From: Candidatus Versatilivorator sp.
GTDB lineage: Bacteria > Acidobacteriota > Terriglobia > Versatilivoradales > Versatilivoraceae
Direction: 5' to 3'
NCBI GenBank assembly: GCA_965207735.1
Contig: OZ242296.1
Coordinates: 1,120,001-1,184,000 of the forward strand
DNA: 64,000 bases
In this document: one piece after another, positions 1,181-25,798 of the stretch
How the letters are laid out: each line of letters opens with the position of its first letter
Position numbering within the stretch: position 1 is the first letter of the stretch
Program-made: the position numbers and the translations under genes
The notes under the pieces: generated by a model
Databases searched by the model: none
What the model was told of the DNA's origin: nothing
What the model saw: only the letters and a program-made list of their open reading frames with translations

Positions 1181-1377
1181 GTGCGCCGCCGCGCCGTGCG
1201 AGGCGGGGACAGCGAGGCCGGCGCTGCACCGCGTAGTGCCGGGGAGCCAGCCTACCCAATGTAATACATTGGGGCTGGCGAGGGGCTCCGGCCCCTTCGA
1301 ACCCCGACCCCGGGGGAGTTCCCCCTGGCCCCCCAATCACCCCGCCCCCTTCCCCCTCTCCAGTTACGGAAACCTCG
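1181..1377. other. Candidate oriT/bom region of the ColE1-type mob cassette
   Basis: Immediately upstream of mobC; hairpin GCCAGC-cta-CCCAATGTA-A-TACATTGGG-GCTGGC (~1246-1279); minus strand has CTGGCT resembling the ColE1-family nic CTGG/CTTA; a second copy occurs at ~14632-15715. Confidence 0.6.
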
Positions 1378-4431: not shown

Positions 4432-4948
4432 TATACCCCCATAAAATGATGGATGCAAGGGTACGGTGCGGACCGCTACGGGAAAAGGACGGATGCTCAA
4501 ATATAATTATAACTGGCAGTTATATAGACATTTATGGACATTACTGGACGTGGTTGGACGACCATCTCATTCTAAGTAAGGATTCCCTGCGGGAAGACGG
4601 AAGAGCCAATTTGGACCGAGATCGATAGGGAGGTGGTATGTTCCCAGAGAACCAGACCGGCTTTGAGGTCAGGGGTTCAATAGATTCTCGGCAGAACCTG
4701 TCCCACGACCAAGTAGTAGATTCAGGCTCGGATGGCCGAGAGGTGTCACTATGGGCGTGTAACCCTGGAGCTACCCCTGGCGATGAGTGGACAAATAAGC
4801 AAGAGCATTTATTGGCCAGCAGCGCGGGCGATGAGCGCGGGGTAAGTGGGGACGTTTCTCTTTGCGACAGTGATTAAAAAATGCTCATTCGTAGCGGAAG
4901 TTGAGGGGACGCAAGCCTGCCCGGCAAAGATCACGGATTGGGGGCAAC

Positions 4949-5503
4949 TTACTCGTCCAGCTCTTCAGCGAGCGCTTGGACTCCTTGTCGCTCAAGGATC
5001 CCCTTCAGCCTGGATCTTTCGACTCGGCGAGCTTGCATTTGTCCTGCAATGTGTCTTGAATAATCCAGCGTGTCAGGGCCCCAGCTTGAACGATCAGAGA
5101 ACAAGACATAGTCCAACGCCAAGTCGTAATCCACAGCGCTCCCATCCGCTGAAGGTATGCTCAGCTTTCCGTTCCAAGAAGCACCAGGAGCCAAACCCGA
5201 GTTCGATTCTTCAGGAACAACGACCACTTTTGACGACCTGCTGACCTCACTGCCGTCCTCTTTGAAGTGGCGGGAGGTTAAGACCCACGCAATCGCTACT
5301 TTGTGGGACAGGTTAGTTACCCGTAGGTCAACGGCAGCTCCACCTTCTGGGTGCACGACCGTGCCCAATTTGAGGTGTTGCAACGGCGCTGTCCTGGCCA
5401 CATTCGCCACTGTGGTGACGACGTTGCGGTCGCGGTTTATTTGACTAACAGCAATCGAGGCGCATGCCACGGCGATCATTGAGAAAAGTAGAACCTTACG
5501 CAT
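4949..5503 (-). CDS. Exported hypothetical protein
   Basis: GGAGGAG RBS, signal peptide MRKVLLFSMIAVACASIAVSQ, beta-rich body. Confidence 0.75.
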   Translation of the reverse strand: MRKVLLFSMIAVACASIAVSQINRDRNVVTTVANVARTAPLQHLKLGTVVHPEGGAAVDLRVTNLSHKVAIAWVLTSRHFKEDGSEVSRSSKVVVVPEESNSGLAPGASWNGKLSIPSADGSAVDYDLALDYVLFSDRSSWGPDTLDYSRHIAGQMQARRVERSRLKGILERQGVQALAEELDE

Positions 5504-5525
5504 TGCTCCTCCTCTTCGTCCTAAC

Positions 5526-6335
5526 CTAGTTTAACGGTTGTTTGAGGTTTCGATGCGCTTCCTGGAGCCTGGCGGCAAGTTTCTGCGCCTCGCCTATTTG
5601 CTCGGCGGTCATCCTTGGTCTGAGCTCGTCCTTCAGCTTGAATGCTCTCTCGTCACCCTGGGCGGCGGCAAGAATGAACCAGGTGTAGCCTTGCATGTAG
5701 TCCTCCGGAACTCCCTCGCCTTTGGCGTACATGTCGCCCAACTCGTATTGTGCACTGGCATAGCCCTGCTCAGCGGCCAGCCGATACCACTTCACCGCCT
5801 CTTGGTGATTCTCAAGCAGCCCTCTGCCGTAGCGGTACATGAAGCCCAAGGCTGTTTGAGCCCTGGCGTGTCTCTGTTCGGCGGCTTGGCGGACCCACTT
5901 CACCCCTTTCCTGCTGTCCTTCGATACCCCCTTGCCAAGGAAGTACATGTGCCCCAGGGCGGTTTGAGCTTCGGCATCTCCCTGCTCGGCCGCTTTCCGG
6001 TACCACGTCGCTGCTTCTTGGTCGTCCTTCGGCACTCCCTCGCCGACGCGGTGCATATGGCCGAGATGGAGCTGAGCCCTGGCGAATCCTTGTTCGGCGG
6101 CTTGGCGGATCCACGTCGCGGCTTCCACGAGGTTCTCTGCTACCCCTTCGCCCCTGGCGTACATGCGGCCGAGCGTGAATTGCGCACTGGAATCTCCTTG
6201 TTCAGCGGCCTGGCGCAACTTTGTAATCTCCTGGTCCTCGGCGAGCCCAGGGCGAAACCCGGCCAGAACGACCACGGCAGCAAAGACAAGTATCGCCTGC
6301 CGTCGGCAAGTATTTCGGTTGGTCGTGATTTCCAT
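5526..6335 (-). CDS. Sel1-like repeat protein, exported
   Basis: About five repeats of AAEQG.A.AQ..LG.MY..G.GV; N-terminal hydrophobic signal. Confidence 0.92.
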   Translation of the reverse strand: MEITTNRNTCRRQAILVFAAVVVLAGFRPGLAEDQEITKLRQAAEQGDSSAQFTLGRMYARGEGVAENLVEAATWIRQAAEQGFARAQLHLGHMHRVGEGVPKDDQEAATWYRKAAEQGDAEAQTALGHMYFLGKGVSKDSRKGVKWVRQAAEQRHARAQTALGFMYRYGRGLLENHQEAVKWYRLAAEQGYASAQYELGDMYAKGEGVPEDYMQGYTWFILAAAQGDERAFKLKDELRPRMTAEQIGEAQKLAARLQEAHRNLKQPLN

Positions 6336-6806
6336 CGCACACTCCCATAGCTTGTTCAAATCTGGGTCTCAATAACGTTTGAGACAACTCACTCAGCCAT
6401 GTTCTTCGGAGTTGTTCTGGCGAGTCGATCACGTTCGAATCGGAGGATTTCTTGAATGCGGTCCAGTCCCTTTTCGTTTGACTCTCTCAACAGAACTGCC
6501 CTGAAGCTGGCCACACTCAGCCGTCTCTGCATCACGACAAGTCCTGATTCGTTACCTGGACATCAATTTGACGGATCGGCGCCGGCATATTCAGGCGAAC
6601 GTCTCTCAGCTAAAATTCGACCTAAAGCTCCTGGGCGGGTCGAAATTCTCCCAAGCGGTCCTCCGCGTTCTCGATCAGGGAAATGAACGGGGAGAGCAGA
6701 CTAGGGGTTCGGCTCAAATGCTACGCATGAGGCGCCCGCCGTCGCTCTCCATACCTGAGTGCCAGTTCGTCCACGGCATTGGCTCCTCCTCAAGGCCAAT
6801 TCATCA

Positions 6807-9503: not shown

Positions 9504-9547
9504 GAGAGATTGTCCTCCTTTCCTGCTTGCCAACTCCTGCTCAGGAT

Positions 9548-9967
9548 TCACTCGGTTTTTGGATCCACAGCGGTGGTGCTGTCACGACGGGTCTTTCTTT
9601 TCCGGAGGATCCTTTCCAGGTCCCGCAGGTCATCCAGGGTCAGTTTGCCTGTATCCGCCAGATGGGACATCACAGGCTGGGGTGAACCGCTGAACAACTC
9701 CAGAAAATCGTCCACCAGACGGCGGTAGGCCTGCGCGCGTGTAATGACTGGGACAAAGACATAGGCATTCCCGATCTTTCGCTGTTTCCGCAGAGCTCCC
9801 TTTGCCTCCAGGCGTAAGACCAGCGTCTGGACCGTCGTATAGGCGAGAGTCTTCCTTACAGGGAGTTGCTCCAGTACTTCCCTGATGGATGCCCTGCCGA
9901 GATTCCAGAGCGCTTCCATCGCCTTGAGCTCAAGAGGCGACAGTTTGATATTGTTCCTCTGTGTCAA
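9548..9967 (-). CDS. BlaI/MecI/CopY family repressor
   Basis: LSPLELKAMEALW, LAYTTVQTLVLRLEAKG, FSGSPQPVMSHL; TTG start after AGGAGG; directly upstream of the M56 gene. Confidence 0.9.
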   Translation of the reverse strand: MTQRNNIKLSPLELKAMEALWNLGRASIREVLEQLPVRKTLAYTTVQTLVLRLEAKGALRKQRKIGNAYVFVPVITRAQAYRRLVDDFLELFSGSPQPVMSHLADTGKLTLDDLRDLERILRKRKTRRDSTTAVDPKTE

Positions 9968-9980
9968 GAAAACACCTCCT

Positions 9981-10622
9981 TCAACTATTATCGCTGAGAA
10001 CAGGACTCGTGTTGGTGATCGTGTAGTCTTCCGGAATCGCAAAGACCGACGCACTCGGTTCCCCCTGCCGGAAGTCGAAGAATTCCACGATCCGACGGGT
10101 CCCACCAGGAAGGGTGAAGTCTGTTTTGACGACAAGCTGCAGGTCCTCGGAAAACCAGGAGGACGAACCGGGCGCCAACTGGCCATTCACGAAGACCGGC
10201 TTGCCCACGCACTCCACGCCATTGATGACTCGTCTGCCCAGGGTTTCCGATTCCGGTGGAACCCTGTAGGGAGAGGGCAGGAGCGGAAGCGGCAACTTTC
10301 TCATGAGCCGTGCGGTCTTCCGATCATGATTGATGAGATACACGTTGCCGGTGGCGGCATCCTTGAAATGCGCTCGTCCCTTCGGCTGTCCATCCTCGAC
10401 GCTGATCCGGGACCTCATCTCCGAACCTAAAGAAGCACGAAACAGCACACCGTTGGCCTCTTCCAGCAGTTCCTCCGAACCATCCGGCAGCGTTCGATAA
10501 GTAAGCTCTTTGAATTGAGCTGTTACGGGGAGCCACTGTCCTCGCAGCATCAGGGGAACGGTCAACCCGAAAGCAAGTGTGACGCAAACCGGCAGCAATC
10601 GGCTATTTGTCTTCCTATTCAT
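9981..10622 (-). CDS. Exported hypothetical protein
   Basis: GGAGG RBS, signal-like N-terminus, LGRRVINGVEC.G and EPSASVFAIPEDY motifs. Confidence 0.7.
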   Translation of the reverse strand: MNRKTNSRLLPVCVTLAFGLTVPLMLRGQWLPVTAQFKELTYRTLPDGSEELLEEANGVLFRASLGSEMRSRISVEDGQPKGRAHFKDAATGNVYLINHDRKTARLMRKLPLPLLPSPYRVPPESETLGRRVINGVECVGKPVFVNGQLAPGSSSWFSEDLQLVVKTDFTLPGGTRRIVEFFDFRQGEPSASVFAIPEDYTITNTSPVLSDNS

Positions 10623-10959
10623 CGTTTCACCTCCAAAGGCTCTAACGTTCCCGATAGAGAGTGATCCGTAGTCCCAACAGCGACTGAAGGGAAAACTGAT
10701 TTTCAGAATAAGGAGCTTAATCTATAGTTGAACCATATTTATAACCTCAAATGTAGTATACGTCAATACTCTTCTACCGGTGCGACGATTTCAATTGTCC
10801 TTGATGGAACGATGCCCCTGGAAAAACACACGTCGTGTTGCAGGGAAAAGCAGTCTTCGCGAGTGGAGGGAGCGACCTTTTTTGTCCGTTGGTGCGGCAC
10901 GAAACGAGGTTAACCGGCGCACGTAATGGCGCATGACTAACCCCGCCTCCGGGTTTCGG

Positions 10960-11104
10960 TTCCCGCCAGTCAGGTAGCTTGACCAATCGTTCATGAGCCG
11001 GCGCCGGCGTTCGAACAGGTCCGAGCGGACATAGGCCGCCTCGACCCGGTTGCGAACCACATGCGCCAGGGCTGCCTCGATCACTTCCCGGGGATGGTCG
11101 GTCT
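10960..11104 (-). pseudogene. Orphan 3' fragment of a P4-like integrase starting at the TDHP codons
   Basis: KTDHPREVIEAALAHVVRNRVEAAYVRSDLFERRRRLMNDWSSYL; integrase similarity stops abruptly at GGGGATGGTCGGTCT (11090-11104). Confidence 0.85.
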
Positions 11105-11203
11105 TTAGCCACGCTCTAGCCACTCGAGGATACGGGTAACGGTCCTGTTCCCCGCAGACGGAGGAATGAATCGGAGCAAGAAACAGGCTCACCCAATGAC
11201 CGA

Positions 11204-11630
11204 GGAACGATCGACGATTTCCGCTTCTGGGGGTCAAGCAGGTGGCGTTAGATGGGCCGCCACCTTTCCGACGGGGGGGTGGCGGTCTAACATGGCGGTG
11301 ATCCTGATACGGACAACGCCTCTCTCTCAGAGGGCAGAGACCTCGCCGTTGTGGTTGGAGGCATTCCCGAAGCGCCGCACCGGACGCGGAACGACAAGCA
11401 TTTTCGGCGTCCGCTGTGGAAAAGCGAAGCGAGGCTGCGCTTCGCGGGTCCCCCTCCCGCCCGGCGTAACGGCGCGCCGCACGAGAGGGAAGAAAGTGGT
11501 GAGAGCGACCCCGCCCTTTTGACCGCTAGTGCACCACGGGGGCGGACAAAGGTGGCGGCCAAGGTGGCGGTCCTTTGCCCCCCGTGCGGGGAGGTCGCTC
11601 TCACCGCAGTCATCCCTGGCGGGAAGGCCG
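11204..11630 (+). repeat. Conserved non-coding module, copy C (CCGCCACC octamers, 13-bp inverted repeat)
   Basis: Colinear similarity to 13897-14317 (reverse) and to 20791-20889 plus 22592-22936; IR at 11498-11510/11593-11605. Confidence 0.75.
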
Positions 11631-11698
11631 GAAGGCGAAAGACCTGGACCCGGAATGTCCTGCTCAACCTGGATTTGATTGCCGCCGGACTTTGCGCT

Positions 11699-12979
11699 TA
11701 GTGCATCACTCCAAAAATGCGATGATGTATTCGGTCAGGCCTAGGCAGCGGCAGTGTGAACCTCCAGAGCTTGGATTTTTTTGAGAAGCTTGTGGAGGTG
11801 ACGGCGCGTGAACTTCCATTGGAAAGGACTGGCGGCCTGCTCGTAGTGCTGTTGAAATCGAAGGAGGCGATCGGCGATTTCAGCGGTGGATTCAAAGTGG
11901 TTGGGTGTGAGGACCTTTCTCTGAATCACCGAGAAATAGATTTCTATCTGGTTCAACCAACTGGCATGGACCGGCGTGTGAAGAGGAACAATGTTCGGCC
12001 ATTGGGCCATCAGCCGGCGGTTACTGCGCTGGCCCCGATGGGAGGAGCCGTTGTCCATGATCCAGAACACGCGGCGAGCCGAACGATAGGGTTCCTCGGA
12101 CATGACCTGGGAGACCAAACGCTGGAAGGGCGCAATGCCAGTGGTGTGCTCACATCGTCCGAAGATCCTGGCGCGCCGAACATCCCAGGCTGCCAAGTAG
12201 GCAAGGGCGCCGCGCCGGGCATAGGCATGTTCGACGCGCATGGCGTGGCGCGGCGCCGGAGGGAGGCTCGGATGTTCCCGCCGGCGGGCTTGGATGCTGG
12301 TCTTTTCGTCGGTCGACACCACGCAATCGGCATCGCTGAGGGGGCGTCCCTTCCAGATGCCTTCATAGAGATCCAAGATGGGGCCGGCCTTCTGGGCAAA
12401 GTGGGGATCTCGGGGAAAAATCCAGCTTCGGTGAAACCAAGGCCGAATCGCATCCTGTGACAACCATCGCCAGATCGTGGTCTCTCCGATCGAAGCGACC
12501 AGTCCCCGACCAATGACCTCACGCTGTATCTCCGCCATGCTGAAGCGGGACAGCGGCAGACCATAGGTATGAGGCAACTCACAGGCCAGCGACTTCACTT
12601 CAACGACCACTTCGGGGGGGAAAGCGAGGCGGCCGGCCTCTGCGGGGAGCCTCCTCCAACCCGGCCAGACGATATTGGAAGAAACGTTTGCGCCACTTAC
12701 ACACGATCTGGGCCGACGTATCCAGTCGGGTTGCGATGTCTTTGTTGTCGAATCCCTGGGAGGCGTAGAGAACGATCTTGGCCCTAATAACATCAATATA
12801 CGATGATGTATATTTACGCGCCTTTGCCTCCAGAATTCTTTTTTCGGAATCGGTAAGAATGATCCTGAATGGGCTTGTCTTTGGCATAGAATTCTCCCTC
12901 CCCTCGGGAAGAATCCTATCCCATTATGCTTAATACCGCCAGACTTATATATCATCGTATTTATGAAATGGACTACTTA
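11699..12979 (-). mobile_element. IS630-family insertion sequence
   Basis: Imperfect terminal IRs (CTTAGTGCATCACTCCAAAAATGCGATG vs CTAAGTAGTCCATTTCATAAATACGATG), TA at both ends, DDE transposase. Confidence 0.85.
11741..12887 (-). CDS. IS630 transposase in two frames, probably joined by frameshift at TTTCCCCCCC (~12614-12623)
   Basis: ORF A (12600-12887) is an HTH ending RRGRPPRF; ORF B has STDEKTSIQ, IMDNGSSH, SWLNQIEIYFS. Confidence 0.88.
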
Positions 12980-13003
12980 GCTCCCGCCTTGGTCGGCGCC
13001 TCC

Positions 13004-13173
13004 CTAATCTGCGGGTTGCGGATCGTCCCCCGGCTCTTGGGCCAGGTAACGTGCCCAGTCCTCCATCAGGACACGCCGGCGGTCGAACAGGTCGGAGCGG
13101 GCATAGGCCGCCTCGACCCGGTTGCGAACCACATGCGCCAGGGCCGCCTCGATCACCTCCCGGGGATGGTCGG
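13004..13173 (-). pseudogene. 3' part of split integrase int3, containing the catalytic His and Tyr
   Basis: DHPREVIEAALAHVVRNRVEAAYARSDLFDRRRVLMEDWARYLAQEPGDDPQPAD*; joins in frame to 24320-25394 through the shared 12-mer. Confidence 0.85.
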
Positions 13174-13257
13174 ACCGCTGAAAAATTTAGATAAAGTATT
13201 TATTACAATATACTTATACCTCATGGGCTGGCTTGTGGTCTCCCAATAGGTCACCCT
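13162..13257. other. Putative attL: core, AT-rich tract and arm-type site
   Basis: Core 13162-13173, AT-rich tract ~13180-13217, GTCTCCC and GTCACCC repeats at 13238 and 13250. Confidence 0.7.
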
Positions 13258-13582
13258 CTATCAAGGTGGTCTCGGAATCCGTTTTGGTGCAGAAAACCCG
13301 GGTAACTGTTCGGTCAAGCTGTGGGGTCCATCCGCCGTCCGGGGGAGGCGTAGCGAGCAGAACCGGCGGATCGCCCGTGATTGCAGGCACCTCCAACCTC
13401 GTCCGGATCCAAGCCAGCACGGCCTGACCGAACAGTTACAAAACCTAACAGCTGACGCTACCGGGGATTTGAGGTGAGGACGTACAATCGGATCAGATGA
13501 CCATACAGCGCTTCCGGGCCATGGGGAAGACCTATTCTCGATGAAGTGTTGGGCTTTCGGCCCGACTTCATTGAGCATCAGC

Positions 13583-13806
13583 CTAGCCGGGGTCCATCCA
13601 GGGATGGGTTCGAGGGGCGCGGGCCTGACCGGTGTCGGCCAGTTCATTCGCATCCGTGGGAGCGGCACCGCGCTCGCGGTCGAGGGCCTCATCAATGAGG
13701 GCGGCAGCCGGGAGCCGAGGTTGAGGTGCCGCCGGGTGCGGAGGCGCTGGAGGCGTTGACAGGTCTCGGAAGAGACGCGGATACGAAGTGGAACACGGTG
13801 CAACAT
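13583..13806 (-). pseudogene. Frameshifted RHH-like small gene remnant
   Basis: VPLRIRVSSETCQRLQRLR in one frame continues as AALIDEALDRE in another. Confidence 0.35.
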
Positions 13807-13896
13807 AAGATACACGACAACACATAAAGCAACAATCAGGTTACGAAGCTACACGGGGCGACACTCAACCACCATAAGCGCGCAACGGCGCTCGAT

Positions 13897-14317
13897 GGCC
13901 TTCCCGCCAGGGATCACTGTTGAGAGAGCGACCTCCCCAAAAGGGGGGCAAAGGGCCGACACCTTTGCCGACACCTTTTCCCGCGCCCGTGGCGCACCAG
14001 CGGGGAAAAAGGGGGGGTCGCTCTCTCCACCAGCACCCCTCTCGTGCGGCGCGCCGTTTCGCCGGGCGAGGGGGGGACACGCGAGGCGCAGCCTCGCTTC
14101 GCCTTTTCGCAGCGGACGCGGGAAATCCGTGTTGTTCCGCGTCTGATGAGGCGTTTCGGGAAAGTCACGAACCACAACGGCGAGGGAGCGCCCTCTGAGA
14201 GAAAGACGTTGTACGTAGCAGGATCTCCGACATGTTAGTCCGACACCCCCCCTTCGGAAAGGTGTCGGCCCATCTGACGACACCGCCTTGACCCCCAGAG
14301 TCGGAAATCGTCGATCA
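13897..14317 (-). repeat. Conserved non-coding module, copy B (CCGACACC octamers)
   Basis: Reverse homologue of 11204-11630; IR at 13922-13933/14016-14027; GGCCGACACCTTT at 13954 and its complement at 14258. Confidence 0.75.
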
Positions 14318-14631
14318 TTTCGCGGCCGGTGGAGGTTGGCGTTTCCTGGTCCCATTGGTCGATCTTCTCCATGACGACACTGAGGCCGGCGTGGCGTTCG
14401 ACGGTGTCCTGTCCCCTGAATCCGCGAGCTTTGCCGGGCAGGCTGGACTTTCTCACTCTCTGGCATACCAGAACTCCCCGAAACGCCTCCTGGACCGATT
14501 CCGCTCTCAGAGACCGCAGGTCTCGCCGCCTGTGGGGAAATCGGAATGGCCGGCCCCGACAGTGAACCGCACTGGGGCGTGGTCGCAATTCGGTCTCGGC
14601 CAACCGTCCCTCCACCTGCACCCCTCTCGCA

Positions 14632-15715
14632 CGGCGCGCCGCCGCGCGAGGCGGGGACAGCGGGGCCGGCGCCGCACCGCGTAGTGCCGGGGAGCCAGCC
14701 TACCCAAGTAGAGTCGAGGACTGGCGCGTTGACTATAGGGTCCGGTGGCTATTCCGTCGCTTTCGCTTCGGGCCTCAGTCCGGCTCCCCTATCACGTTTC
14801 CAGTCCCCGCTCTCCGAACCGGACGTGCGGTTTTCCCGCGTCTCGGCTCTCCAGTGGGATCATGCATCTCGCACACAGGTCCCCGGTCGCATTCGTGGAC
14901 GACTCCTGCGGGATTGGCACCCTCCCCTACTCCATCCACTTCCGCTCCCGGGTTGCCGCCAGGCCTGTTGACGCCCTGACGACGCCGGCGTCCTCCGCCG
15001 ACCCCTTCACTTTTGGATGTGATGCTTCCGGAGTCTCCGGTCCTTTTGCCGGGGTTTCAGGCTTTCGCCACTCCCGAGACCCTTCCCCCTTCGGTCACCG
15101 CTCCTCACCTGAGGCCCCTTCCCTCCACGGGCGTTACCCCGCTTCTCCAGTACTACAGGCCTCTCCGCCACCCTGCAGGCCCGGCCTGCCCCTCGCGGGG
15201 TCCCGGTTGATGTGTGCCACATCTCCCCCAGGGCTTCCCGTGTTGCCACCTTCTTCCCCTTCCATGCGTGCCAGCGTCATTACCCCGACGGAAACGGATC
15301 GGTGCCCGCGTCGCTCACTTCCCCATCCGCCAACGGCCTTCCCCTAATTACAGGAGGGTCGGCTTCCGTATCGCCCTGTTTCGAGGCCTGCTCGACGTTC
15401 ACTCGCGTTCCGGCCCGCATGGTCGCTGAACCGCCTCAGAGCGGCCCTTTGTCACCAGAGTGCTTCAGACCATTTCGTTACCTCCATGATCCGCCCTGGC
15501 TGCTACCAACCGGAGCGACAGTTGTTGGGCGGGGTTCGCACCCGCCGGAAGAAGGCGCCTTTCCACGGCGCACTGTAATACATTGGGGCTGGCGAGGGGC
15601 TCCGGCCCCTGCGAACCCCCGACCCGGCGGGAGCGCTCCCCTGGCCCCCCCATCACCCCCGCCGCTCCCTTCTCCCTCTCCCATGACGGAGGCCTCGATG
15701 GCGCCAGAAGCGACG
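14632..15715. other. Second oriT-like region interrupted by a group II intron and followed by a few-codon mobC stub
   Basis: 14632-14707 plus 15574-15715 closely match 1181-1395, including CCTCGATGGCG at the mobC start. Confidence 0.7.
14708..15573 (-). ncRNA. ORF-less group II intron (866 nt)
   Basis: 5' end GTGCG, 3' end CTCTAC; domain V GAGCCG-AGAC-GCGG-GAAAA-CCGC-AC-GTC-CGGTTC (~14816-14850); EBS1 UGUAAU (15347-15352) complementary to IBS1 AUUACA; precise insertion without target duplication compared with the empty site at 1259/1260. Confidence 0.92.
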
Positions 15716-15727
15716 GGGAAGTTTTCG

Positions 15728-16094
15728 ACCACAACGGCGAGGGGGGCGCCCTCTGAGAGAAAAGCGTTGGGGGTGGTGAAGTCACGCGCCACCCCTGTGC
15801 GCCACCAGGGCTTTTTGGGTGGCGCGTTGGTCCGACTCCACCGCCTTGACTCCCAGAGGCGGAAATCGTCGATCAGTCCTCGGCCGTTCGAGGCCGGGTT
15901 CTCCTGCTCCCATTGGACGATCTTCTCCATGACGACATCGACGCTGGCGTGGCGTTCGATGGTGTCCTGACCCCCCTGAATCCGCGAGATTTGCCGGGCA
16001 GGCTGCCATTTCCAAGCCCCTGGCATGCCAGAGCATCCCGGAACCCGTTCCTGGACCGATGTTCCTCTCAGGGACCGCAGGTCCCGCCGCCTGT
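15728..16094. repeat. Diverged direct repeat of 14171-14533 (GCGCCACC octamers)
   Basis: Shared blocks ACCACAACGGCGAGGG, CCGCCTTGAC.CCCAGAG, GATCTTCTCCATGACGAC, CTGAATCCGCGAG, GACCGCAGGTC. Confidence 0.8.
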
Positions 16095-16295
16095 CGCTCC
16101 CCTCGAAATATTCCCTGGCGCAAGGCCAACGCGCCGCTGGCGGTGCGAAGACCAATTACTGCCGTCGTTGCGGACGCCTGTGGTGAGCGGGCATTAGTCT
16201 GTATGATAGGCTCGTTCTCGTCGACGGACGTTCGCTCGCTCGTCATCAAAGTCGGTGAAGCGGCGGTCGCCACCTAGCTCTTCCACGTCTCAACG

Positions 16296-16868
16296 ATGCC
16301 AAAGCCACCGGGAGACAATTCCTCGCTTCGCGAACACTTCGCCTGGACCTATGGGACGCTCGCCATGGTCCACGCCGCTGTCAAGGACGGCAAGACCCGC
16401 TACAAGCCGGTGCACTTCATCATCCGCGGTCGGTTCCGGCACGGATTCCTGTCCGGCACAATGCGGATGCGCCCGCTGCACGACGACGAGAAGACCAAAA
16501 TCGCTCACGCGACAACGTGCTGCTACTGCGGTCGCGAGGCAAAGCTCTCATTGGATCATCTGATCCCTAAACTCAAGGGCGGACCCGACGCCGCCGACAA
16601 CATCACCTACGCATGCAGAAGCTGTAACTCGTCCAAGGGATCGAAGGACATGGTGCTCTGGCTCGTGTCGAAGGGCCGATTTCCTGCGATCCTGGTCCTT
16701 CGCCGGTACCTCAAGCTGGCGGCTCGCTGGTGCGAGGACGCGAAGCTAATGGAAGCGTCATGGGCTGACGTCCCTGACGCCTCACTGCCGTTCGACAAGC
16801 GGTCCCTAAGAGTTAAGTGGCCGGAACTGTCCGTACACCGGTTGTGGCCTGACCCGCCGGAGCCATGA
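16296..16868 (+). CDS. HNH endonuclease
   Basis: CCYCG..LSLDHLIP..GG.D..DN....CRSCNSSKG. Confidence 0.88.
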   Translation: MPKPPGDNSSLREHFAWTYGTLAMVHAAVKDGKTRYKPVHFIIRGRFRHGFLSGTMRMRPLHDDEKTKIAHATTCCYCGREAKLSLDHLIPKLKGGPDAADNITYACRSCNSSKGSKDMVLWLVSKGRFPAILVLRRYLKLAARWCEDAKLMEASWADVPDASLPFDKRSLRVKWPELSVHRLWPDPPEP

Positions 16869-17021
16869 GCCGTCGTCGGCGACTAGCGCCTGATGCTGCT
16901 GGACGACGTAGGGTTGATGGACGATGGTACTCGTCGCCGCAGGCAATCGGGTTCGACGAGCAGAGCTGTGGGGAGGACTTGCCGTGGCGCTCGTGCGACG
17001 CCACGGCGAACAATCGCCCCG

Positions 17022-17303
17022 TCATGCAGCACGTTCAGTTGTGCAAGCGTTGCTCCTCTGCTTGGCTCTACGGCCGTCGGTAACTCGTTCGTCGGTGAAC
17101 GGCCGGGACGAGACCCGGCAATTGAGCAGGGATTTAGCGCGTCGCCGGACGTAGAAGCGGTTGGCTCCCTGCAGGTAGAAGGCGAGCTGGTCTCGGGTGA
17201 ACAGGCCCGAGTGCAGGCCGACCAGCGTGATCCACTCGGCCTGTTGCCGGCGGAAGCCAAGAGGTTCCAGCAGTTTTTCGCGTCCCTTCAGGTGGGCAAT
17301 CAT
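17022..17303 (-). pseudogene. Probable truncated element-associated hypothetical protein
   Basis: Plausible N-terminus (MIAHLKGRE..LEPLG...QAEWITLVGLHSGLFTR.Q) that decays into low-quality sequence. Confidence 0.4.
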
Positions 17304-17781
17304 GGTTTCCCTGGTCCTGGTCCTGGTCCTTGTCCTGGGCGTGGGGCCTCCATGCCGGCAGACTCAAGCTTGCTGAAAGCTCTCAGCGTGTCGAAGAGGG
17401 CGGTGGTCCGAGTGTTGTCCCATGCTTGGAGACCGGCACACACACTCTCTCAGAGGTGCACCCCCCCTTCTGTGGAGTCGGTCCGTGGGGAGGTGAGCTA
17501 TATGAGGTTATCAGCTGGCCAGGACAAAGACGTGAAGCGGACGCGAGACAAGGACGGATGGTTTTCCATGAGGGGAGTTTTCTCCGGACAATGCGGACCG
17601 GAGCAAGAATTCCAGAAGACCTCCCCTCAGGCAAGGAAAACGTGCACGCCGCTTGCGGCGGAGTCGAATGCCCCCAACCCCCTCCCAAAACACAACGGAC
17701 AGAGATTTTGGACACCTCACGGGATTCACCTTACAATGGCTCCTGCGCTTTCCTGGAGAACAGGACCACATCGGCCGAAAA

Positions 17782-18474
17782 ATGGAAAAACGGAGGAGAT
17801 CCGGGATATTTGGCTGGAGTGCGTTCCACGGCTGGATGTCATTCGACAAGCTGGACGAGGGCGACGGCTTGACGAGAGCGTTCACGATCGGCTACCGCTT
17901 GACCGATGATCGCGACGACCCATGGACGGCTCGGTTCAATGCGTTCAAGGACAAGGAACGTGCGGCCCTCCGCGGCGCGGCGGCAATGATGCAGGATGCC
18001 GTCCCCGTTCTCGTCAGGGGTCTTGGACTCGAAATCTCGAAGACCGTCTTCATCCCGGCGTTATCATCAGGGGAGACGGTCGCGTCCCCCTCCGGCGTAT
18101 TGTGGCGCTTGACACAGCACTGCGCCAAATATGCGGCGGTGGAATTCTCGGGCGACAGGATCACGAAAAAGGCGCACGAGAAACTCCACATGTACTCCGA
18201 TGCTACCAGAAGGCGAGCTGTTCTTGCCGCCGCCGATTTCAGGTCGAAAGAGGTACACGCCGAAAACGTCCTGATTCTCGACGACTTCATCACACGCGGC
18301 ACCACAATGTCGCACATCGCAGGAGCCATTCTGAGACGGAATCGCGGGCTCAGGATCTTCGCCGTCGCGCTCGGAAAGACGGAACGTCGTAGCTACTGGC
18401 GGGGGTTCGGTAAAGAAATCTCGAATGAGCATGTCTCGCCTAAGTCGGGGAGGAGGTGGATGAATGCGACGTGA
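17782..18474 (+). CDS. Phosphoribosyltransferase-fold protein (ComF-like; resembles the ShosT PRTase domain)
   Basis: PRPP-binding loop NVLILDDFITRGTTM; overlaps the DprA-like gene start. Confidence 0.8.
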   Translation: MEKRRRSGIFGWSAFHGWMSFDKLDEGDGLTRAFTIGYRLTDDRDDPWTARFNAFKDKERAALRGAAAMMQDAVPVLVRGLGLEISKTVFIPALSSGETVASPSGVLWRLTQHCAKYAAVEFSGDRITKKAHEKLHMYSDATRRRAVLAAADFRSKEVHAENVLILDDFITRGTTMSHIAGAILRRNRGLRIFAVALGKTERRSYWRGFGKEISNEHVSPKSGRRWMNAT

Positions 18475-19459
18475 TTTAGCCGGCGCGTCACTGACCGCGG
18501 TCTCGATCCTCGCGCTCATGAAGCTTCAACGCATTGGGCGGAAGACAGCTCTGACGATTGTCGATCGACCGATCAACGAAACAGAACCCAGAAGCTGCCG
18601 CGAAGCCCTGCTGGACCGCATGGTCCGGGCGCGGCTGCCGCGTGTTCAGTCGGCAACAATCTCGGATGCCTGGATGAGAAGCGAGGAACAACTGAACCGA
18701 GGCTCCGAGTTCGGCGTGCACGCAATCTCATTCCACGATGAAGGGTATCCCACCCGTCTGCGGAAGATCCCCGATCCACCGGCCCTGCTGTTCGTGAAGG
18801 GGAACGCGCAGGGCATGAGCACGTCGCGAGCCCTGGCGGTAGTGGGAACCCGCAAGCCAACGCCGGACGGGAAGATGCTGGCTCTGAGATCGGGACGCAT
18901 AGCCGTTCAAAGCGGCTATGCGATCGTCAGCGGCCTCGCTCTTGGATGCGACACGTATGCGCACAAGGGGTGCCTCGAGGCGGAAGGCATCGGCGTAGCG
19001 GTTCTGGCCCACGGATTGGACAGAGTCTGTCCAGCTGCGAATCGCGATCTGGCGGATCGGCTCGTGGAAACCGGAGGCTGCCTGACGAGCGAGTACCCGG
19101 TGGGAATGACGCCGATACGCTCAGCGTTCGCCGATCGCGACCGTATTCAGAGCGGACTGTCCGATGGCGTGCTCGTCATCGAGACGGATATCAGGGGCGG
19201 GACGATGAACACCGTGCGCTCTGCCCTCAAACAGAAACGTGCGCTCGCGTGCATCCACCTCGACCACCTGGAACGCTTTTATTCGGAAGAGACGACCCGA
19301 GGCAATCGAAAACTCGTGCAGCAGGAGGACGCGCGGCCGATTGCGAATCGCACGGCACTCATCGAGTTCCTGAAGGATCTGCGGCAGCCGAATGCGCCGC
19401 AGCCTGATCCAGAGCCCGCGGACACCATCCGCGAGACTCAGATGTCGCTCGGGTTCTAA
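18464..19459 (+). CDS. DprA/Smf-family protein (ShosA-like)
   Basis: YPTRLRKIPDPPALLFVKG, AVVGTRKPT, IVSGLALGCDTYAH, SEYPVG, RDRIQSGLS. Confidence 0.92.
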   Translation: MRRDLAGASLTAVSILALMKLQRIGRKTALTIVDRPINETEPRSCREALLDRMVRARLPRVQSATISDAWMRSEEQLNRGSEFGVHAISFHDEGYPTRLRKIPDPPALLFVKGNAQGMSTSRALAVVGTRKPTPDGKMLALRSGRIAVQSGYAIVSGLALGCDTYAHKGCLEAEGIGVAVLAHGLDRVCPAANRDLADRLVETGGCLTSEYPVGMTPIRSAFADRDRIQSGLSDGVLVIETDIRGGTMNTVRSALKQKRALACIHLDHLERFYSEETTRGNRKLVQQEDARPIANRTALIEFLKDLRQPNAPQPDPEPADTIRETQMSLGF

Positions 19460-19460
19460 G

Positions 19461-19961
19461 GTGATCATCTTCGATTTCGATCTCACGCTCGTCGACACGA
19501 AGCCCGTTGAGGCACTGCGGGCGGCCCGAAAATGGAGATCGGTCCTGGATCGGGCACCGGCACTGAAAGTATATGACGGCGTGTACGAACTCCTCTTCGA
19601 CCTCGATGCCCGCGGCCAGACGCTTGCGATTGTCACAATGAGCCCGGACATGGTGCCTCGGGATTTCGTGCATCGTTACCGGTGGCCGATCGGCTTGGTG
19701 ATCGGTTACCACCAGGTGAGCAGGCGAAAGCCGAACCCGGAAGCGCTGATTCTGGCCATGCGCGAGGCTGGCGCCAAACAGAACGAGACGTTCCACATCG
19801 GGGATCAGCCCGAGGATACGGAAGCCGCCCGACGGGCTGGCATCGTCGCAATAGGGGCGGGGTGGGGATCGGTTGATATTGGACTTCTCAGAGCATCAAA
19901 TCCCGATTACCTGTTCACGTCAGTCCAAGAGTGCCGGGAATTCCTGTTGGCGGCCCTGTAG
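19461..19961 (+). CDS. HAD-superfamily hydrolase
   Basis: Motif I FDFDLTLVDT, IVT, KPNPE, IGDQPED; GTG start 1 nt after the DprA stop. Confidence 0.88.
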   Translation: MIIFDFDLTLVDTKPVEALRAARKWRSVLDRAPALKVYDGVYELLFDLDARGQTLAIVTMSPDMVPRDFVHRYRWPIGLVIGYHQVSRRKPNPEALILAMREAGAKQNETFHIGDQPEDTEAARRAGIVAIGAGWGSVDIGLLRASNPDYLFTSVQECREFLLAAL

Positions 19962-19964
19962 GCG

Positions 19965-20170
19965 CGTCACCGGCTTCCAGTCATTATCGCGGTTCCCGCG
20001 CCGCTCGAAGAAGGCATCCCTCGCTACGGGAAGGAGTAGATTGTCCGAGATTGCCGCGGTCTCCTCCCCCTCCCGCCAAGCCTGTTCCAAGATCCAGAGT
20101 TCGCCCGCGAGTGCCCTCCTCTCCTGTTCCAGATCAATAGGTTCCTCGACTGGATCATCCCATAGGAGAC
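19965..20170 (-). pseudogene. Possible C-terminal fragment of a hypothetical protein
   Basis: Helical, protein-like segment EQERRALAGELWILEQAWREGEETAAISDNLLLP with no credible start. Confidence 0.3.
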
Positions 20171-20889
20171 CCGTCCCATGCCGACACTTTCTCCATCCCG
20201 GCCCGACATGGTCCCTCTGGCCATCCTCGAAAATCACGTCGTTGTCGCCGCCGTCCGCTTCCGAGCCGGCTTGACGGGCTGCCTATCTCCGGTGGGACTG
20301 TTGTCTGGGCGCGCCCTGCACGGCTACGTTCGCACCGAAGGCCAGTCTGCCCGCTGGGGCCAGGTCTAGGGCATCGGCTGGGAACAGGCCGACGCGGCTG
20401 ACGCCGGAGGCGGAATTGCAACGCGACCAACAGAGAGGCGAAGACGATGAACAAACGGCATGGGAATTTAATTTGCCATACCCCAGCAGATGCTTCCTGT
20501 CGAGTTCCAAACAAAGGGGACTACAACCGAAAGTGGCGAGTCCCCTTATTGACGTTCGCGGGGCTTGTCGATCCAGCGCGGTATTTGGGAGGGAAACCGA
20601 ACTGGGCGCGGTCCTGGTCGCAATCGAGGGAGTGGTCAAGCTTGCCGAGCAGGTCGGCAGGAGGGTACTCCTTTTTCCATGAGGCCACCGAAGACCATGA
20701 GGCGGCGGGTGCAGCGTCGGGCCACAGGGGGGAAGGGAAGCGGAAGTGAAAGGACCGCCATCGAACGCCATGGCGGACTCGGCCGGAGCAGGAACGATCG
20801 ACAGACTCCGCCTCCGGGGGTCACGCCCGTGCCGTCGTATCGGTGGCCATCTTACAAAGGGGGGGTGGCTCACCGAGGTGGCTCACTAG

Positions 20890-22587
20890 CCCGCATTTCT
20901 CACCAGAGTTCGCACAGGAGCGGTAAAAGGGGCCATGGAGGCATTTGAGGCCGAGTTTAACAACGTTGGTGGCTGGATCGGTAGGCAAAGGCCAACAGCG
21001 GAGGCTTCTGAGGCTCTCCGAGGAACCTCAGGCGGCATTTTCCCTCGAAAACAGCGACACCTCTGCCATCGGGCCTGGTGGCCGCGTCTTCAAGGGCCAG
21101 GAGTGACGGTCGGGTCAGGGCACCTCAGGGCGGCAGGTGAGCCCAAGCGATGCGGAACTCCCTCTGGTAAGGACATCCGGAAGCCATGGCGACCTTGATG
21201 CGACGGACCGAGATGGTGACCTGAGCGCCGATCTTGAGCAGTTTGAGTCTGATGGAACCGACGGTGGCCCGGGCCAGGCAGGTGGATTGCAGCGCCCGCC
21301 GGCGCAAGCCCTCCACCAGCACATAGGCGAAAGAGGTCATCAGGAGCCGGAGCTGATTCGCCCGGAAGGAGTGGGTGGAGGTGCGATCGGCAAACAGGTC
21401 GAGTTGCTGCTCCTTGATGCGGTTTTCCATCTCACCGCGGGCACAGTAGATCTTCTCATAGAGGAACTGGGCGGGGTAGTCCTGGACCGACAGAGAGGTG
21501 ACGACGAAGCGGGGGTTGGGGCCGCGGGGCAGGACCTCGGCTTTGGCGACCAGGCGGCGCTCGTGGGACCAGCTCTTGTGAGTGCGGTAGGAGAGGTCGG
21601 TGAAGATCCGGGCGGGCTGCTGTTGCTGGTCTGAGAGGGCCTGGGCCTGAGCCAACTCGGGGGCGATGGCGTCTTGGAGGCGGGAGTTGCGGGCCAGGCC
21701 GAAGAGATAGTCGACCTGATGCTGCTCACACCACCCCATCAGCTCCTCACGGGCAAAGCCGGAGTCGGCCCGCAGCAGGATCTTGACCTGAGGCCAGACA
21801 CGCCGTAGGCGGGAGACGATGCGCTGGACCTGCTCCAGAGCGCCGGCGGAGGCATCGATGTTGGCGGGTCTGAGCAGGGCCGAGAGCAGATGGCGGCCCG
21901 AGAAGATGTAGAGGGGCAGGTAGCAGTAGCCTCGGTAGTAGCCGTGGAAGAAGCGGTCCTCTTGTTCCCCGTGGAGGGGATCGTCAGTGGCGTCGAGGTC
22001 GAGGATGATCTCATCGGGGGGTTGGGGATGGGCTTGCAGAAACAGTTTCACCAGGAGGGCTTGCAAGGCCTCGGGGTCGTGGTCAATCTTGTGGTAGCGG
22101 GTGGGGCCTTGGGTGGGGGCGTGTTCGAGTCGGTTGAGGGTGCTCTTGCCTGCCAGGGGAGGCGAGTCGCCACGACGGCCTTTCTCTGAAAACAAGGCCA
22201 TGAGGGGATCGTGACGGAGTTGGTCGTGGTCGATGAGATCCTCGTAGCCGAGGGCGATGCCACGGATGCGCTGAGCGATGAGGGTGCGCAGGCTGTATTG
22301 GGTCCGCTTGGGGTCGCGGTGATCGGTGAAACAGTCGGCCACCTGGTCGGAGAGAGATAAGCCCCGATCCACCCGGCGCAACAGCAGGGAGCCGGCATCG
22401 GAAGTGATGGGACCGCCGTCGAAATCAGCCACCACGCGGCGGCGGCCGTGGGGTTCAAACTCCAGGGGTTTGGTGTTACACTGTGTCGGCATCGGTTCTC
22501 CTTTAAGAATCTGGTTAACTCCTTAGACAAGAGTATTTTACCAGATTCCGAGAACCGATGCTTCCTACCTCTGGTGAGAAATGCGGG
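20890..22587 (-). mobile_element. IS1380-family insertion sequence
   Basis: Perfect 19-bp terminal IR CCCGCATTTCTCACCAGAG; CTAG target duplication at 20886-20889 and 22588-22591. Confidence 0.93.
21125..22492 (-). CDS. IS1380 transposase
   Basis: FDGGPITSDAG, LDLDATDDPLHGEQE, LRADSGF, Y.ARGEMENRIKEQQ. Confidence 0.95.
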   Translation of the reverse strand: MPTQCNTKPLEFEPHGRRRVVADFDGGPITSDAGSLLLRRVDRGLSLSDQVADCFTDHRDPKRTQYSLRTLIAQRIRGIALGYEDLIDHDQLRHDPLMALFSEKGRRGDSPPLAGKSTLNRLEHAPTQGPTRYHKIDHDPEALQALLVKLFLQAHPQPPDEIILDLDATDDPLHGEQEDRFFHGYYRGYCYLPLYIFSGRHLLSALLRPANIDASAGALEQVQRIVSRLRRVWPQVKILLRADSGFAREELMGWCEQHQVDYLFGLARNSRLQDAIAPELAQAQALSDQQQQPARIFTDLSYRTHKSWSHERRLVAKAEVLPRGPNPRFVVTSLSVQDYPAQFLYEKIYCARGEMENRIKEQQLDLFADRTSTHSFRANQLRLLMTSFAYVLVEGLRRRALQSTCLARATVGSIRLKLLKIGAQVTISVRRIKVAMASGCPYQREFRIAWAHLPP

Positions 22588-22996
22588 CTAGGTGGCTCAC
22601 GCTTTTGACCACCCCAACGCTCCTCTCTCAGTGGGCAAATTCCTCGCCGTTGTGGTCCAGGCTATGCCCGGGAATCCGCATTGGACAAGGGTTGGCACGG
22701 ATTCCCCAAATCCTCTGCGGTAAATCGCAATGCGGCGCCGCGCCACGGTGTCCCCGCCTCGCACGGCGCGGCGTGGCGCCGCACGGGAGGGGGAGGAAGT
22801 GGAGGGAGCGACCCCGGCTTTTTTGCCGCTGGTGCGGCACCGGGCAGGGGTAGGTGGTGCACGCCAAAATCCACCACCACCCCTCCCCTTTTCGGGGTCG
22901 CTCCCTCCACAGTGATCCCTGGCGGGAAGGCCGCCGTAGCGGTGACGAAGCCCGGATCGGAACACTGACCACAGGGGGAGCACGAGAGGGGCCAAC

Positions 22997-24166
22997 TCAG
23001 GCAGCGGCCGTTTTCCGGCCCGCGCCCAGGAATACCGCCCACTGCTCCATCAGGACGCGCCGGCGCTCGAACAGGTCCGAGCGGGCGTAGGCGGCTTCCA
23101 CTTGGTTGCGGACCACGTGCGACAACGCTGCCTCCATCACGGCATGGGGCGCATCGGTCTGCTCCCCCGCCCAGTCCCGGAACGAGGAGCGAAACCCATG
23201 CGGCACGGCCCCGATTCCCAGTTCCCGCAGCAGGGTGCTGAGATCGCGGTCCGGCAGTGGGCCACCGGCCGGAGTCGGAAACACCAGATTGGAAGATCTC
23301 TCGATCCGCCTCGCTTCAGCCAGAATCCTCCGCGCTCCCGTAGACAACGGGACCCGGTGCTCTCTCTGGTGCTTCATCCGTTCCGGGGGAACCGTCCACA
23401 CTCCCGCCTCCAGGTCGATCTCCGCCCAGCGCGCCCCGCGCATCTCCCCCGACCGGCACGCCGTCAGCACCAGGAACTCGAAGCCGAGCTTGACCCCCAC
23501 GTCTGCTTCCGATTGCCGCACTGTCCGGATCGCCCCGGCCACCTCCCCGTAGGGCAGCGCCTTGAAGTGGCGTTGGATGCCGCCCTGTTTCGGCAGCGCG
23601 GCCCCGAGCGCCTCCCCGGCCGGATTGTCCATCCGGTAGCCCTGGGCAATGGCCCACTTCATCACCGTGCCGATCCGTTGCCGCACCCGCCGGGCCGTTG
23701 CCTGCCTGGTGTTCCAGATCGGCGACAGCACAGCCATGACATCGGCCGTGGTGATCCCGTCCACCCGCATCCGGCCCAGCTTGGGGTAGACGTAGCTGCG
23801 CAGGCTGCCTTTCCACTGAGCGGCGTGATGGTCGCTTCTCCAGTTGGGCCGGTACATGGCGTAGACCTTGGCGGCGGCCTGCTCGAAGGTCGGGACGGAG
23901 TGGCGCCGGGAGGCCAGGGGATTGCCGCCGGAGCGGGCCAGCCGGCGGTTGGCGATGGCCCTCTCCCGGGCCTGGGCCAGCGTCACGAGCCGAAGAGAGC
24001 CGAGACCCAGCTCGCGGCGCTTGCCGTGGATGAAGAGCCGTTGGATCCATTGCTTGTATCCGGAGGGCTTGACCCGTAGGATCAAGCCATGCTCGTCCCA
24101 GTAGAGTCCGGGCTGCTCGACGGTGCGGACGAAGGCGGCGGAGAGTTTCTTGCGGTAACGAGTCAC
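22997..24166 (-). CDS. P4-like tyrosine integrase (int2, intact), integrase of the inserted element
   Basis: LTACRSGE, PHGFRSSFRDW, LSH, EAAY; arm-binding N-terminal domain. Confidence 0.95.
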   Translation of the reverse strand: MTRYRKKLSAAFVRTVEQPGLYWDEHGLILRVKPSGYKQWIQRLFIHGKRRELGLGSLRLVTLAQARERAIANRRLARSGGNPLASRRHSVPTFEQAAAKVYAMYRPNWRSDHHAAQWKGSLRSYVYPKLGRMRVDGITTADVMAVLSPIWNTRQATARRVRQRIGTVMKWAIAQGYRMDNPAGEALGAALPKQGGIQRHFKALPYGEVAGAIRTVRQSEADVGVKLGFEFLVLTACRSGEMRGARWAEIDLEAGVWTVPPERMKHQREHRVPLSTGARRILAEARRIERSSNLVFPTPAGGPLPDRDLSTLLRELGIGAVPHGFRSSFRDWAGEQTDAPHAVMEAALSHVVRNQVEAAYARSDLFERRRVLMEQWAVFLGAGRKTAAA

Positions 24167-24169
24167 CGG

Positions 24170-24331
24170 ATCACCCCCTAGAAAATCACCCTATAGATCA
24201 CCCTGAACGTCCAGGAACACCCTGGACATCAATAGACGCCAATATACCATAAGTGACTCATACAAGTCTACTTACAATACTTTAGTAGATGTCTCTGGAA
24301 CTTTCTGGACTCTGCACTGGGGGATGGTCGG
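24170..24331. other. Putative attR: arm-type repeats and core
   Basis: ATCACCC at 24170, 24185 and 24197; AT-rich TAAGT..ACTTA tract; core at 24320-24331. Confidence 0.7.
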
Positions 24332-25394
24332 TCTCTTCGGCCGCCCAGTCCCGGAAGCTGGAGCGGAAACCGTGCGGCACCGCCGCAACCCCAAGCTGGC
24401 GCAGCAGTCGGCGCACCGCGCTGTCATGCAGTGGCTTCCCGCCCCCATGGGTGAACACCAGCGGACCGGCTCCCCCTTCCAGTGCCTCCGCTGCTTCGAG
24501 AATCTCCAGGGCTCGGCCACACAGCGGCACGCGGTGCCGGCGGTTCGTCTTTGCCCGCTTGACCGGGACGATCCACACCCTCCCGTTGCGATCGATCTCC
24601 TCCCACTCGGCCCACCTCACCTCACTCCACCTGGCCGCCGTCAGCACCAGGAACTCAAGGGCCAACCTGGCGGCCGGCAATGCGGTCGATGCCCGCACCT
24701 TCCAGATCACCGCAGCCGCCTCCCGATGGGGCAAAGCCCGCATGTGCTCGGTCACGTCCTTTTGGGGACCCAGCACCGGTCCGATCCGGTCACAGGGGTT
24801 GTCGATGCGGAACTCCATGGTCACGGCCCATTCCAGAACCGCATGCAGGCGCTGGCGCACCCGCTTGGCCGTGGCTACCTTCCGGTGCCAGAGGGGCGTG
24901 AGGATCTCAAGCACGTCGGCACTGGTGACCTCGGAGACGGGCACCTTGCCGATGCGGGGAAAGACGAAGCGCCTCAAGCTCGACTGCCACTCCCGGGAAT
25001 GTCTCGGGTTCCGCCATCCGCCCCGCTTCTGTTCCAGCACACGCATGGCGGCTTGGGCGAAGGTGGGAATACCCTCGGCGCGCCGCTTCTCGGCAAGCGG
25101 GTCCCCGCCCGTTCGGGCGAGCTTTCGGTTCGCGAGCGCCTTCTCCCGGGCCTCGACCAGGGAAACGAGGGCAACGCTGCCGAGTCCGAGCTCACGGCGG
25201 CGGCCACGGATGAGGAGGCGTTGAATCCAGCTGCGTGTTCCGCTGGGCTGGACGAAGAGGTACAATCCGTTTCCATCAGCGTGTCTTCCGGGCGGAGCAG
25301 AGCGAATGAAAGCAGGAGAGAGAGCCTTATGGGGATGGCGGCCCTTGGGTTTCGTTTTAGGTAGCAGACGGGCTGTACGTGATCCAGTAATCAT
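24320..25394 (-). pseudogene. 5' part of split P4-like integrase int3 (lacks the C-terminal catalytic His and Tyr)
   Basis: Integrase sequence runs to PHGFRSSFRDWAAEETDHP, then 12 unrelated residues and a stop (ORF 24282-25394). Confidence 0.9.
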
Positions 25395-25798
25395 CCCCTT
25401 ATTATATGGGGGATGGTAATTGAGGTGGATTGCGAGGGATGTTTCGAGTCGGCCAAGCGATGGTTGAACTCAGATAAGGTAATGATAATAAATACGGTTA
25501 TAGACTGTAATGGAAGACATTAGACGTTGCTGGAATGTGGAAGGCTGTTGCTGCACAGGAAGCTGACCACCTGCCGATCGGGTGGGTGTGTGATGTCATC
25601 CAAGGGCTTGATTGCCGGTAGTCGGGAATCGTCGTTCAAGAAATGGTGATGGTCAAACTCAATGGGGTAAACACGCTTGCCCTGGAGCCCCCATACCAAA
25701 CCATCGGCCAATGATCCTGTCTATCCTGTGCATCGATGTTCAATGATGCGGCAAACCGAATTGGCGGGACAGGGGCCGGCCTGGTCTGGAATTACGGG

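Follow-up and report, generated by a model that had tools for sequence, protein, structure and literature searches.

A 64,000-nucleotide stretch of the genome of Candidatus Versatilivorator sp. (assembly GCA_965207735.1, contig OZ242296.1, positions 1,120,001 to 1,184,000 of the forward strand), referred to here in its entirety as the window, contains an 11.2-kb interval that splits the integrase gene int3 of a resident integrative element and carries an intact tyrosine integrase gene of its own, int2. The window lies in a genome (G000) that is a single contig of 5.26 Mb. Site-specific targeting of the Thr-Asp-His-Pro (TDHP) codons of a sister integrase is very likely real, and the interval is best read, with a probability of about 0.6, as an integrative element placed at this TDHP core, likely by int2, and living as a passenger of sister elements.

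The split int3 gene and the ends of the int2 element

Two copies of the 12-bp core GGGGATGGTCGG, at 13162-13173 and 24320-24331, bound the interval, bearing out the claim of an earlier note on this DNA that both junctions share the same sequence. At attL (24320..24331, minus strand) the core reads CCGACCATCCCC on the minus strand, forms the T-D-H-P codons of int3 and includes the likely 7-bp overlap CCGACCA, and at attR (13162..13173, minus strand) the identical 12 bp are followed by the int3 C-terminus; the homology common to both junctions consists of these 12 bp only. The N-terminal 358 codons of int3 (24320..25394, minus strand), a resident integrase of the int1/int3 type termed family A here, encode the arm-binding domain, the central core-binding domain and the part of the catalytic domain that holds R-K-HxxR. 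The open reading frame (ORF; 24282-25394, minus strand) ends ...RDWAAEETDHP, as read previously, with 12 foreign residues encoded by the element end appended. The remainder of the gene (13004..13161, minus strand) carries the last His and the Tyr nucleophile, and the piece at 13004-13173 encodes REVIEAALAH...EAAYARSD. Joined in silico, the two halves give a product of 410 aa in frame, the same length as an intact paralogue in this genome and in agreement with the integrase of about 410 aa that removal of the interval had been predicted to restore. In an alignment of the joined int3 with int1 and int2, it is the distal piece that holds the last His and the Tyr, confirming that the break parts the HGFR motif from both residues.

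The int2 gene (22997..24166, minus strand) encodes a 389-aa tyrosine integrase with an arm-binding domain, and the earlier description of it as intact is upheld by its complete frame and by the full R-K-HxxR-H-Y catalytic set in the alignment with int1 and the joined int3. Pfam matches are to PF13356 (E 2.6e-15), which we take to be the former DUF4102, PF22022 (E 2.1e-27) and PF00589 (E 3.4e-14), giving int2 the arm-binding, core-binding and catalytic domains, together with the catalytic residues, of an IntSXT/P4-like integrase. Its own gene reads TDAP and is without the core; TDAP as an adaptive self-avoidance of int2 was considered and rejected, since TDAP is also common to a related clade that targets mobC.

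The left end of the int2 element (24167..24319, minus strand) contains three arm-type repeats and a candidate promoter (24270-24241) facing int2, and the right end (13174..13300, minus strand) contains an arm-type motif at 13247-13257, with homologous ends in 6 other genomes. Both previously noticed arm-type motifs, at 13247 and 24194, are therefore present, and two further copies lie between 24168 and 24192. The stretch between int3 and int2 yielded no terminator, and the element contains no replacement 3′ end for the target gene. In the proposed mechanism, int2 would bind the GGGTGAYC arm repeats and exchange strands across an overlap of about 7 bp, and the insertion would leave a predicted tyrosine-less product of 360-370 aa with int2 placed 154 bp downstream. 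As insertion is always co-oriented with the target and no terminator intervenes, transcription of the resident would read into int2.

Recurrence of the junction and the target family

A search with int2 left-end DNA covered 41 genomes and gave matches only within the genus, which is presumably sponge-dwelling, consistent with a match in a sponge metagenome. A scan of metagenomes revealed no full-length int2-clade locus; the best full-length matches are 70-71% identical, and one 93% fragment (L177; L numbers are used here for loci) is without the left end. A junction pattern run over 14 genomes of the genus returned 33 matches, 13 of which coincide with left-end matches, and the remaining 20 have core mismatches and no left-end match. 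This mapping of the flanks of int2 homologues, which the earlier note had proposed, places 13 of 13 left junctions at the TDHP-codon core, in 8 of the 14 genomes. The left flank is a family-A frame running into TDHP in five cases (the window, L024, L048, L054 and L061), including one without the N-terminal half of the integrase (L048) and one with a 1-nt deletion at the core (L061); in-silico excision rejoins L024 and L054 in frame, and L061 is not rejoined in frame. The other flanks are a short VPHG-to-TDHP relic in two cases (a second G000 copy and L021), a relic containing a spacer of clustered regularly interspaced short palindromic repeats (CRISPR) in three (L022, L068 and L026), an SSF transporter gene in one (L027/L106) and unclassified sequence in two (L025 and L023). 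Since only five of the 13 insertions split a long integrase frame, the site appears to be a short sequence used wherever it is present; the earlier proposal that the int2 element uses a stretch of sister integrases as attB stands as regards the recurrence of its ends at TDHP, with this limit on how often an integrase gene is actually split.

Right ends number 22, 19 of them from ten searched genomes and 3 in G000. Fourteen run into an integrase C-terminus, five stop before the core and three do not enter an integrase C-terminus, these exceptions being the transporter, L107, where an insertion sequence (IS) makes the cut, and the second G000 copy, which has an IS-like remnant of 570 bp. Eleven elements are mapped at both ends, with sizes of 4.6-26 kb and differing cargo; the second int2 element in G000 occupies C1:4237358-4263480, another left end with its junction deleted is found in G010:C223, and an empty version of the L026 site is present in another genome (L282). 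A quick version of the tree, in which the int1 row was disregarded, groups the 11 int2 rows in one clade (Shimodaira-Hasegawa-like approximate likelihood ratio test support 100) and family A in another (99). The four split residents in this tree sit on different family-A branches, which argues for separate insertions. Two loci, L277 and L278, combine an intact integrase of family A and cargo with a right end of the int2 type, the core and a second C-terminus of an integrase, and look like either a repaired resident after loss of int2 or a derivative carrying a replacement 3′ end.

In the core, the two positions that vary fall on wobble bases, one in the Thr and one in the Asp codon, and the element variants can thus track the synonymous variants of the target. 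The overlap of about 7 bp, C[CG]GA[CT]CA, probably has to match between attP and attB under normal circumstances. Of the 10 pairs scored, a set without L061, 9 have one and the same overlap variant at attL and attR (permutation p 0.001), and each of the three closest int2 proteins goes with a different variant, a combination that fits a matching overlap with occasional mismatched events (L054). Such mismatched events would let an element switch variant.

Besides int3, G000 contains 22 other near-full-length family-A integrases and many fragments. Family-A elements have conserved ends and are inserted in dispersed repeats, and these elements, including internally deleted copies, sit in two or three classes of repetitive extragenic palindromic (REP)-like repeats (e.g., C1:4232540-4276948), which likely accounts for their copy number. 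The 14-mer G[AT]C[CG]GA[CT]CATCCCC occurs 21 times in G000, always in family-A genes, relics or int2 junctions, against 0.7 occurrences expected by base composition; this excess and the same junction in 7 other genomes indicate that the site is not a matter of chance. A looser 12-mer is present 38 times, with family A accounting for 24 of these. The 14-mer is carried by 7 of the 22 near-full-length genes, D, H or P is altered at the site in 5 of the 22, numbers too few to test for escape selection, and one of the 23 near-full-length family-A genes in G000 holds an int2 element. The resident of the window has its left end at 25395..25560 (minus strand) with the core CTGTGCAGCA at approximately 25549-25558, and the same 10-bp core at a right end outside the window (G000:C1, approximately 1103190) gives it a length of about 42 kb. 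The end-core class of this resident is shared by four intact paralogues, whose identity to int3 is 85-90% over 357 residues.

Element contents, CRISPR-repeat relics and the wider clade

The int2 elements have in common their left and right ends, int2, a conserved non-coding block and a sequence resembling an origin of transfer (oriT). In the window the non-coding block (22592..22933), which follows the integrase in both element types and is a candidate replication origin, continues at approximately 20790-20885 past an IS1380-family element (20886..22591, minus strand). The oriT-like sequence (14632..15714) is 90-92% identical to the stretch upstream of the int1 element's mobC (window 1184-1316), and is matched in 8 of 11 int2 elements. 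It contains an ORF-less group II intron (14708-15573, minus strand; Rfam RF02003); at about 90% identity, 28 further near-full copies exist in the genome. With the window's own genes as queries, none of the 11 int2 elements gave a relaxase or mobC match, leaving the int2 element with its own integrase and attL/attR direct repeats, and without the relaxase of a typical integrative and mobilizable element (IME). Similarly, no AlpA, primase or capsid and packaging gene, the set expected of a phage-inducible chromosomal island (PICI), was found among the 10 interval ORFs in the Pfam scan, some small ORFs lying outside it.

The cargo of the window element includes an HNH endonuclease (16296..16868, plus strand; Pfam scan) and a trio of genes (17653..19961, plus strand) encoding a phosphoribosyltransferase-like protein (ShosT, a weak match, E 1e-5), DprA/ShosA (E 1.7e-67) and an HAD hydrolase; this ShosTA-like trio is a candidate defence module. 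A conserved 331-aa protein (L240:1633-2628; 1988 homologues), encoded between the integrase and the origin-like block, belongs to no Pfam, NCBIfam or Atlas family and is a candidate replication initiator, with remnants in the window at 17022-17303, 15478-16155 and 14235-14621. The second int2 element in G000 (L241) encodes a 1486-aa protein with a weak reverse-transcriptase match (4664-9124) and a 1658-aa nuclease-helicase-methylase (9373-14349). The 42-kb resident itself contains an IS630-family element just past the int3 C-terminus (11699..12979, minus strand, ends approximate), and nested in the same resident is the int1 element (window 1378-4500), with a mobC and a MobA/VirD2-like relaxase that are the sole match in the genome for those two queries.

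Many orphan integrase C-termini in these genomes start exactly at the core. In a common type of relic, a CRISPR repeat of type I-E is followed by a spacer of 31-32 nt, the core exactly where the next repeat would begin and an integrase C-terminus; such relics are found in the window (11104-11170), at G000:C1 1939543, 3846287, 3850344 and 4586612 among others, and in L022, L026 and L282. The copy within the resident (10960..11170, minus strand) has a degenerate repeat and spacer, the same core and a second integrase C-terminus (approximately 10960-11103). That C-terminus was considered as the direct partner of int3 and rejected, as its left side is the CRISPR-spacer relic found genome-wide; pairing of N- and C-terminal halves by identity was unusable because the integrase C-terminus is too conserved. 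True arrays with this type I-E repeat and a 61-bp period occur in the genus near Cas7 (G005). Over its first 12 bp the local type I-E repeat is 1-2 bases away from the int2 core variants, and this is precisely where repeat/integrase hybrids are joined. On the simplest reading the relics would derive from past recombination between a CRISPR repeat and a TDHP site, and two different spacer sets suggest that the join likely arose at least twice.

The int2 proteins fall within a clade of 30 rows (support 99, quick tree). A branch of 13 rows, drawn from bins of Gemmatimonadota and Gammaproteobacteria and with 70-72% identity to int2, interrupts the mobC of oriT-mobC-relaxase operons at codons 3-5 (L033, L034, L037, L039, L040, L043 and L044; left 9835, right e.g., L033:13712). 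Both ends are mapped in 7 loci, with three right flanks confirmed as NikA/MobC, and mobC is present at one or both ends in 10 of the 13 rows, several of which are near-identical. Another branch (L030/L213 and L031/L205) has the core CGATAGC and a right-flank motif that bears a resemblance, and only a resemblance, to the origin-like block. The L053 insertion is presumably in a transposase remnant. With a neighbouring clade splitting the mobC of other elements, the lineage seems drawn to mobile-element backbones, a tropism that is frequent and not universal.

Competing explanations and related systems

Without a relaxase, an int2 element living as a passenger would need to move in cis or in trans. 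In cis it could accompany the resident, whose excision would be the work of intact paralogues or would follow once int3 has been restored by excision of int2, and in trans it could be mobilized through the oriT-like sequence. Several observations weigh against the passenger reading. Eight of the 13 insertions lie outside a long integrase frame, and the outgroup members L045 and L046 are in chromosomal genes. No attP circle joint is present among the public-contig matches listed, and the public contigs gave no demonstrated restoration of int3: joints skipping 13161-24320 do occur, with short sides or 90% likeness, and intact paralogues yield the identical joint, so these contig joints say nothing on excision. 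No excisionase was identified in the shared segments examined, the relaxase result comes from one query family with partial element coverage for L026 and L054, and the oriT-like site in the window is broken by its group II intron. The oriT-like and origin-like labels are based on position alone, and the structural model of the 331-aa protein (predicted local distance difference test score 80) has no PDB match at E <= 0.001, with weak winged-helix and nuclease hints.

A more ambitious reading is offered tentatively. It describes a lineage specialised on integrative-element backbones other than its own, with switches of target among their integrase, mobC and origin region, in which the int2 branch may amputate the catalytic tyrosine of a sister, couple its excision to resident induction by read-through, track synonymous codons with its overlap variants, and shuffle integrase C-termini across the family via type I-E CRISPR repeats and relic sites.

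A neutral sink is a less probable account, in which the short-site consensus of int2 merely chances to match a family present in 20-40 copies plus relics per genome, and nesting is not adaptive. The five of 13 insertions in dead relics and the one in the SSF transporter gene, the occupancy of a single one of 23 near-full-length family-A genes, and the abundance of family A through insertion in REP-like repeats all speak for it. However, the sister clade also hits a backbone gene, at mobC codons 3-5, the overlap variants agree with the synonymous variants of the target, and the 14-mer is absent from G000 outside family A, suggesting that the lineage depends on this family.

Competitor silencing is less likely again. 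The earlier note held that the insertion locks the resident in place until the invader excises, to which a truncated protein blocking the resident att sites might contribute; the break does remove the last His and Tyr, five long frames are split, and the truncated product is predicted to retain its DNA-binding domains. The same logic has been proposed for helper-embedded PICIs (HE-PICIs; PMC10111431). Here, however, the lock is doubtful: the resident retains both of its ends, the four close intact paralogues of the same end-core class make complementation in trans likely, and 15 of the 22 near-full-length family-A genes in G000 are without the 14-mer. A true lock would require an inhibitory truncated product. 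Finally, misassembly among the near-identical repeats in which this genome is rich, or homology-driven recombination between int2 and int3, is very improbable, even with the window's two junctions unbridged among the public-contig matches listed, given that the junctions have only 12 bp in common, that identical end structures turn up in 7 further assemblies whose flanks and cargo differ, and that a copy with 95% identity has its left junction bridged by a contig of run X2.

SSV1/pTN3-type elements split their own integrase gene upon integration. The int2 element resembles them in that site-specific integration splits an integrase gene, and differs in that int2 stays intact, reads TDAP without the core and has its attP outside its own gene. 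Insertion in CRISPR repeats is known from a streptococcal prophage. A Tn7-like family is also reported to insert in CRISPR repeats (PMC11837452). In comparison with such inserters, the local repeat starts with a sequence 1-2 bases off the int2 core, yet none of the 17 readable right junctions has a CRISPR repeat, and no int2 element was found within a CRISPR array.

Closer parallels are found among elements that live in other elements. HE-PICIs (Tommasini et al. 2023, PMC10111431) are elements with a P4/PICI-type integrase that insert in late genes of helper prophages. Like them, the int2 element belongs to a P4/PICI-type tyrosine integrase clade with a tropism for the genes of another mobile element, disrupts its target by inserting in the same orientation, brings no replacement sequence in attP, occasionally uses off-target chromosomal sites, and is proposed here to receive read-through from its host element. 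Unlike HE-PICIs, its target is the catalytic domain of a related integrase rather than a prophage late gene, its host is a non-phage integrative element, and no capsid, primase or AlpA gene is seen in the window element. IMEs insert in conserved sites within integrative and conjugative elements (ICEs), including the oriT nic site and the VirD4, Maff2 and SNF2 genes (PMC5704250). As with these ICE-targeting IMEs, the int2 element is non-autonomous, uses and disrupts a conserved site of another element, and could travel in cis or in trans; unlike them, its hosts are small and without a conjugation system, it has no relaxase that could be found, and no integrase-gene target is listed in the portion of PMC5704250 available. 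The domain architecture (Arm-DNA-bind_3, Phage_int_M and Phage_integrase) is that of the IntSXT subgroup including P4 (PMC8138268); unlike the IntSXT clusters described there, which are inserted at the flanks of conserved host genes, the int2 clade inserts within a paralogous integrase. Restoration of the frame by precise excision, a feature of regulated gene integrity elements, is seen for int3 in silico only (410 aa). The int2 element works like HE-PICIs and ICE-targeting IMEs and belongs to neither group, as it does not target a late gene of a phage and the search with the window's own genes gave no relaxase.

No element targeting the integrase gene of another element was found in the literature searched, a set that leaves most subscription papers outside and to which TIGER target lists or supplements may add one, and the available portions of PMC12084326, PMC13626063 and PMC12884075 contain no integrase-gene targets. 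The int2 insertions put the active site of an integrase among the places where one mobile element makes use of another. A recombination assay is easy to design, given 13 natural insertions, attP and attB sequences that can be reconstructed and three natural overlap variants, and the mobC-targeting sister clade makes it testable how integrase clades keep a tropism for mobile elements while the core sequence changes. For the genomes of this genus, many orphan integrase tails are explained as scars at one site, and a gene annotated as a truncated integrase can be a reversible interruption.

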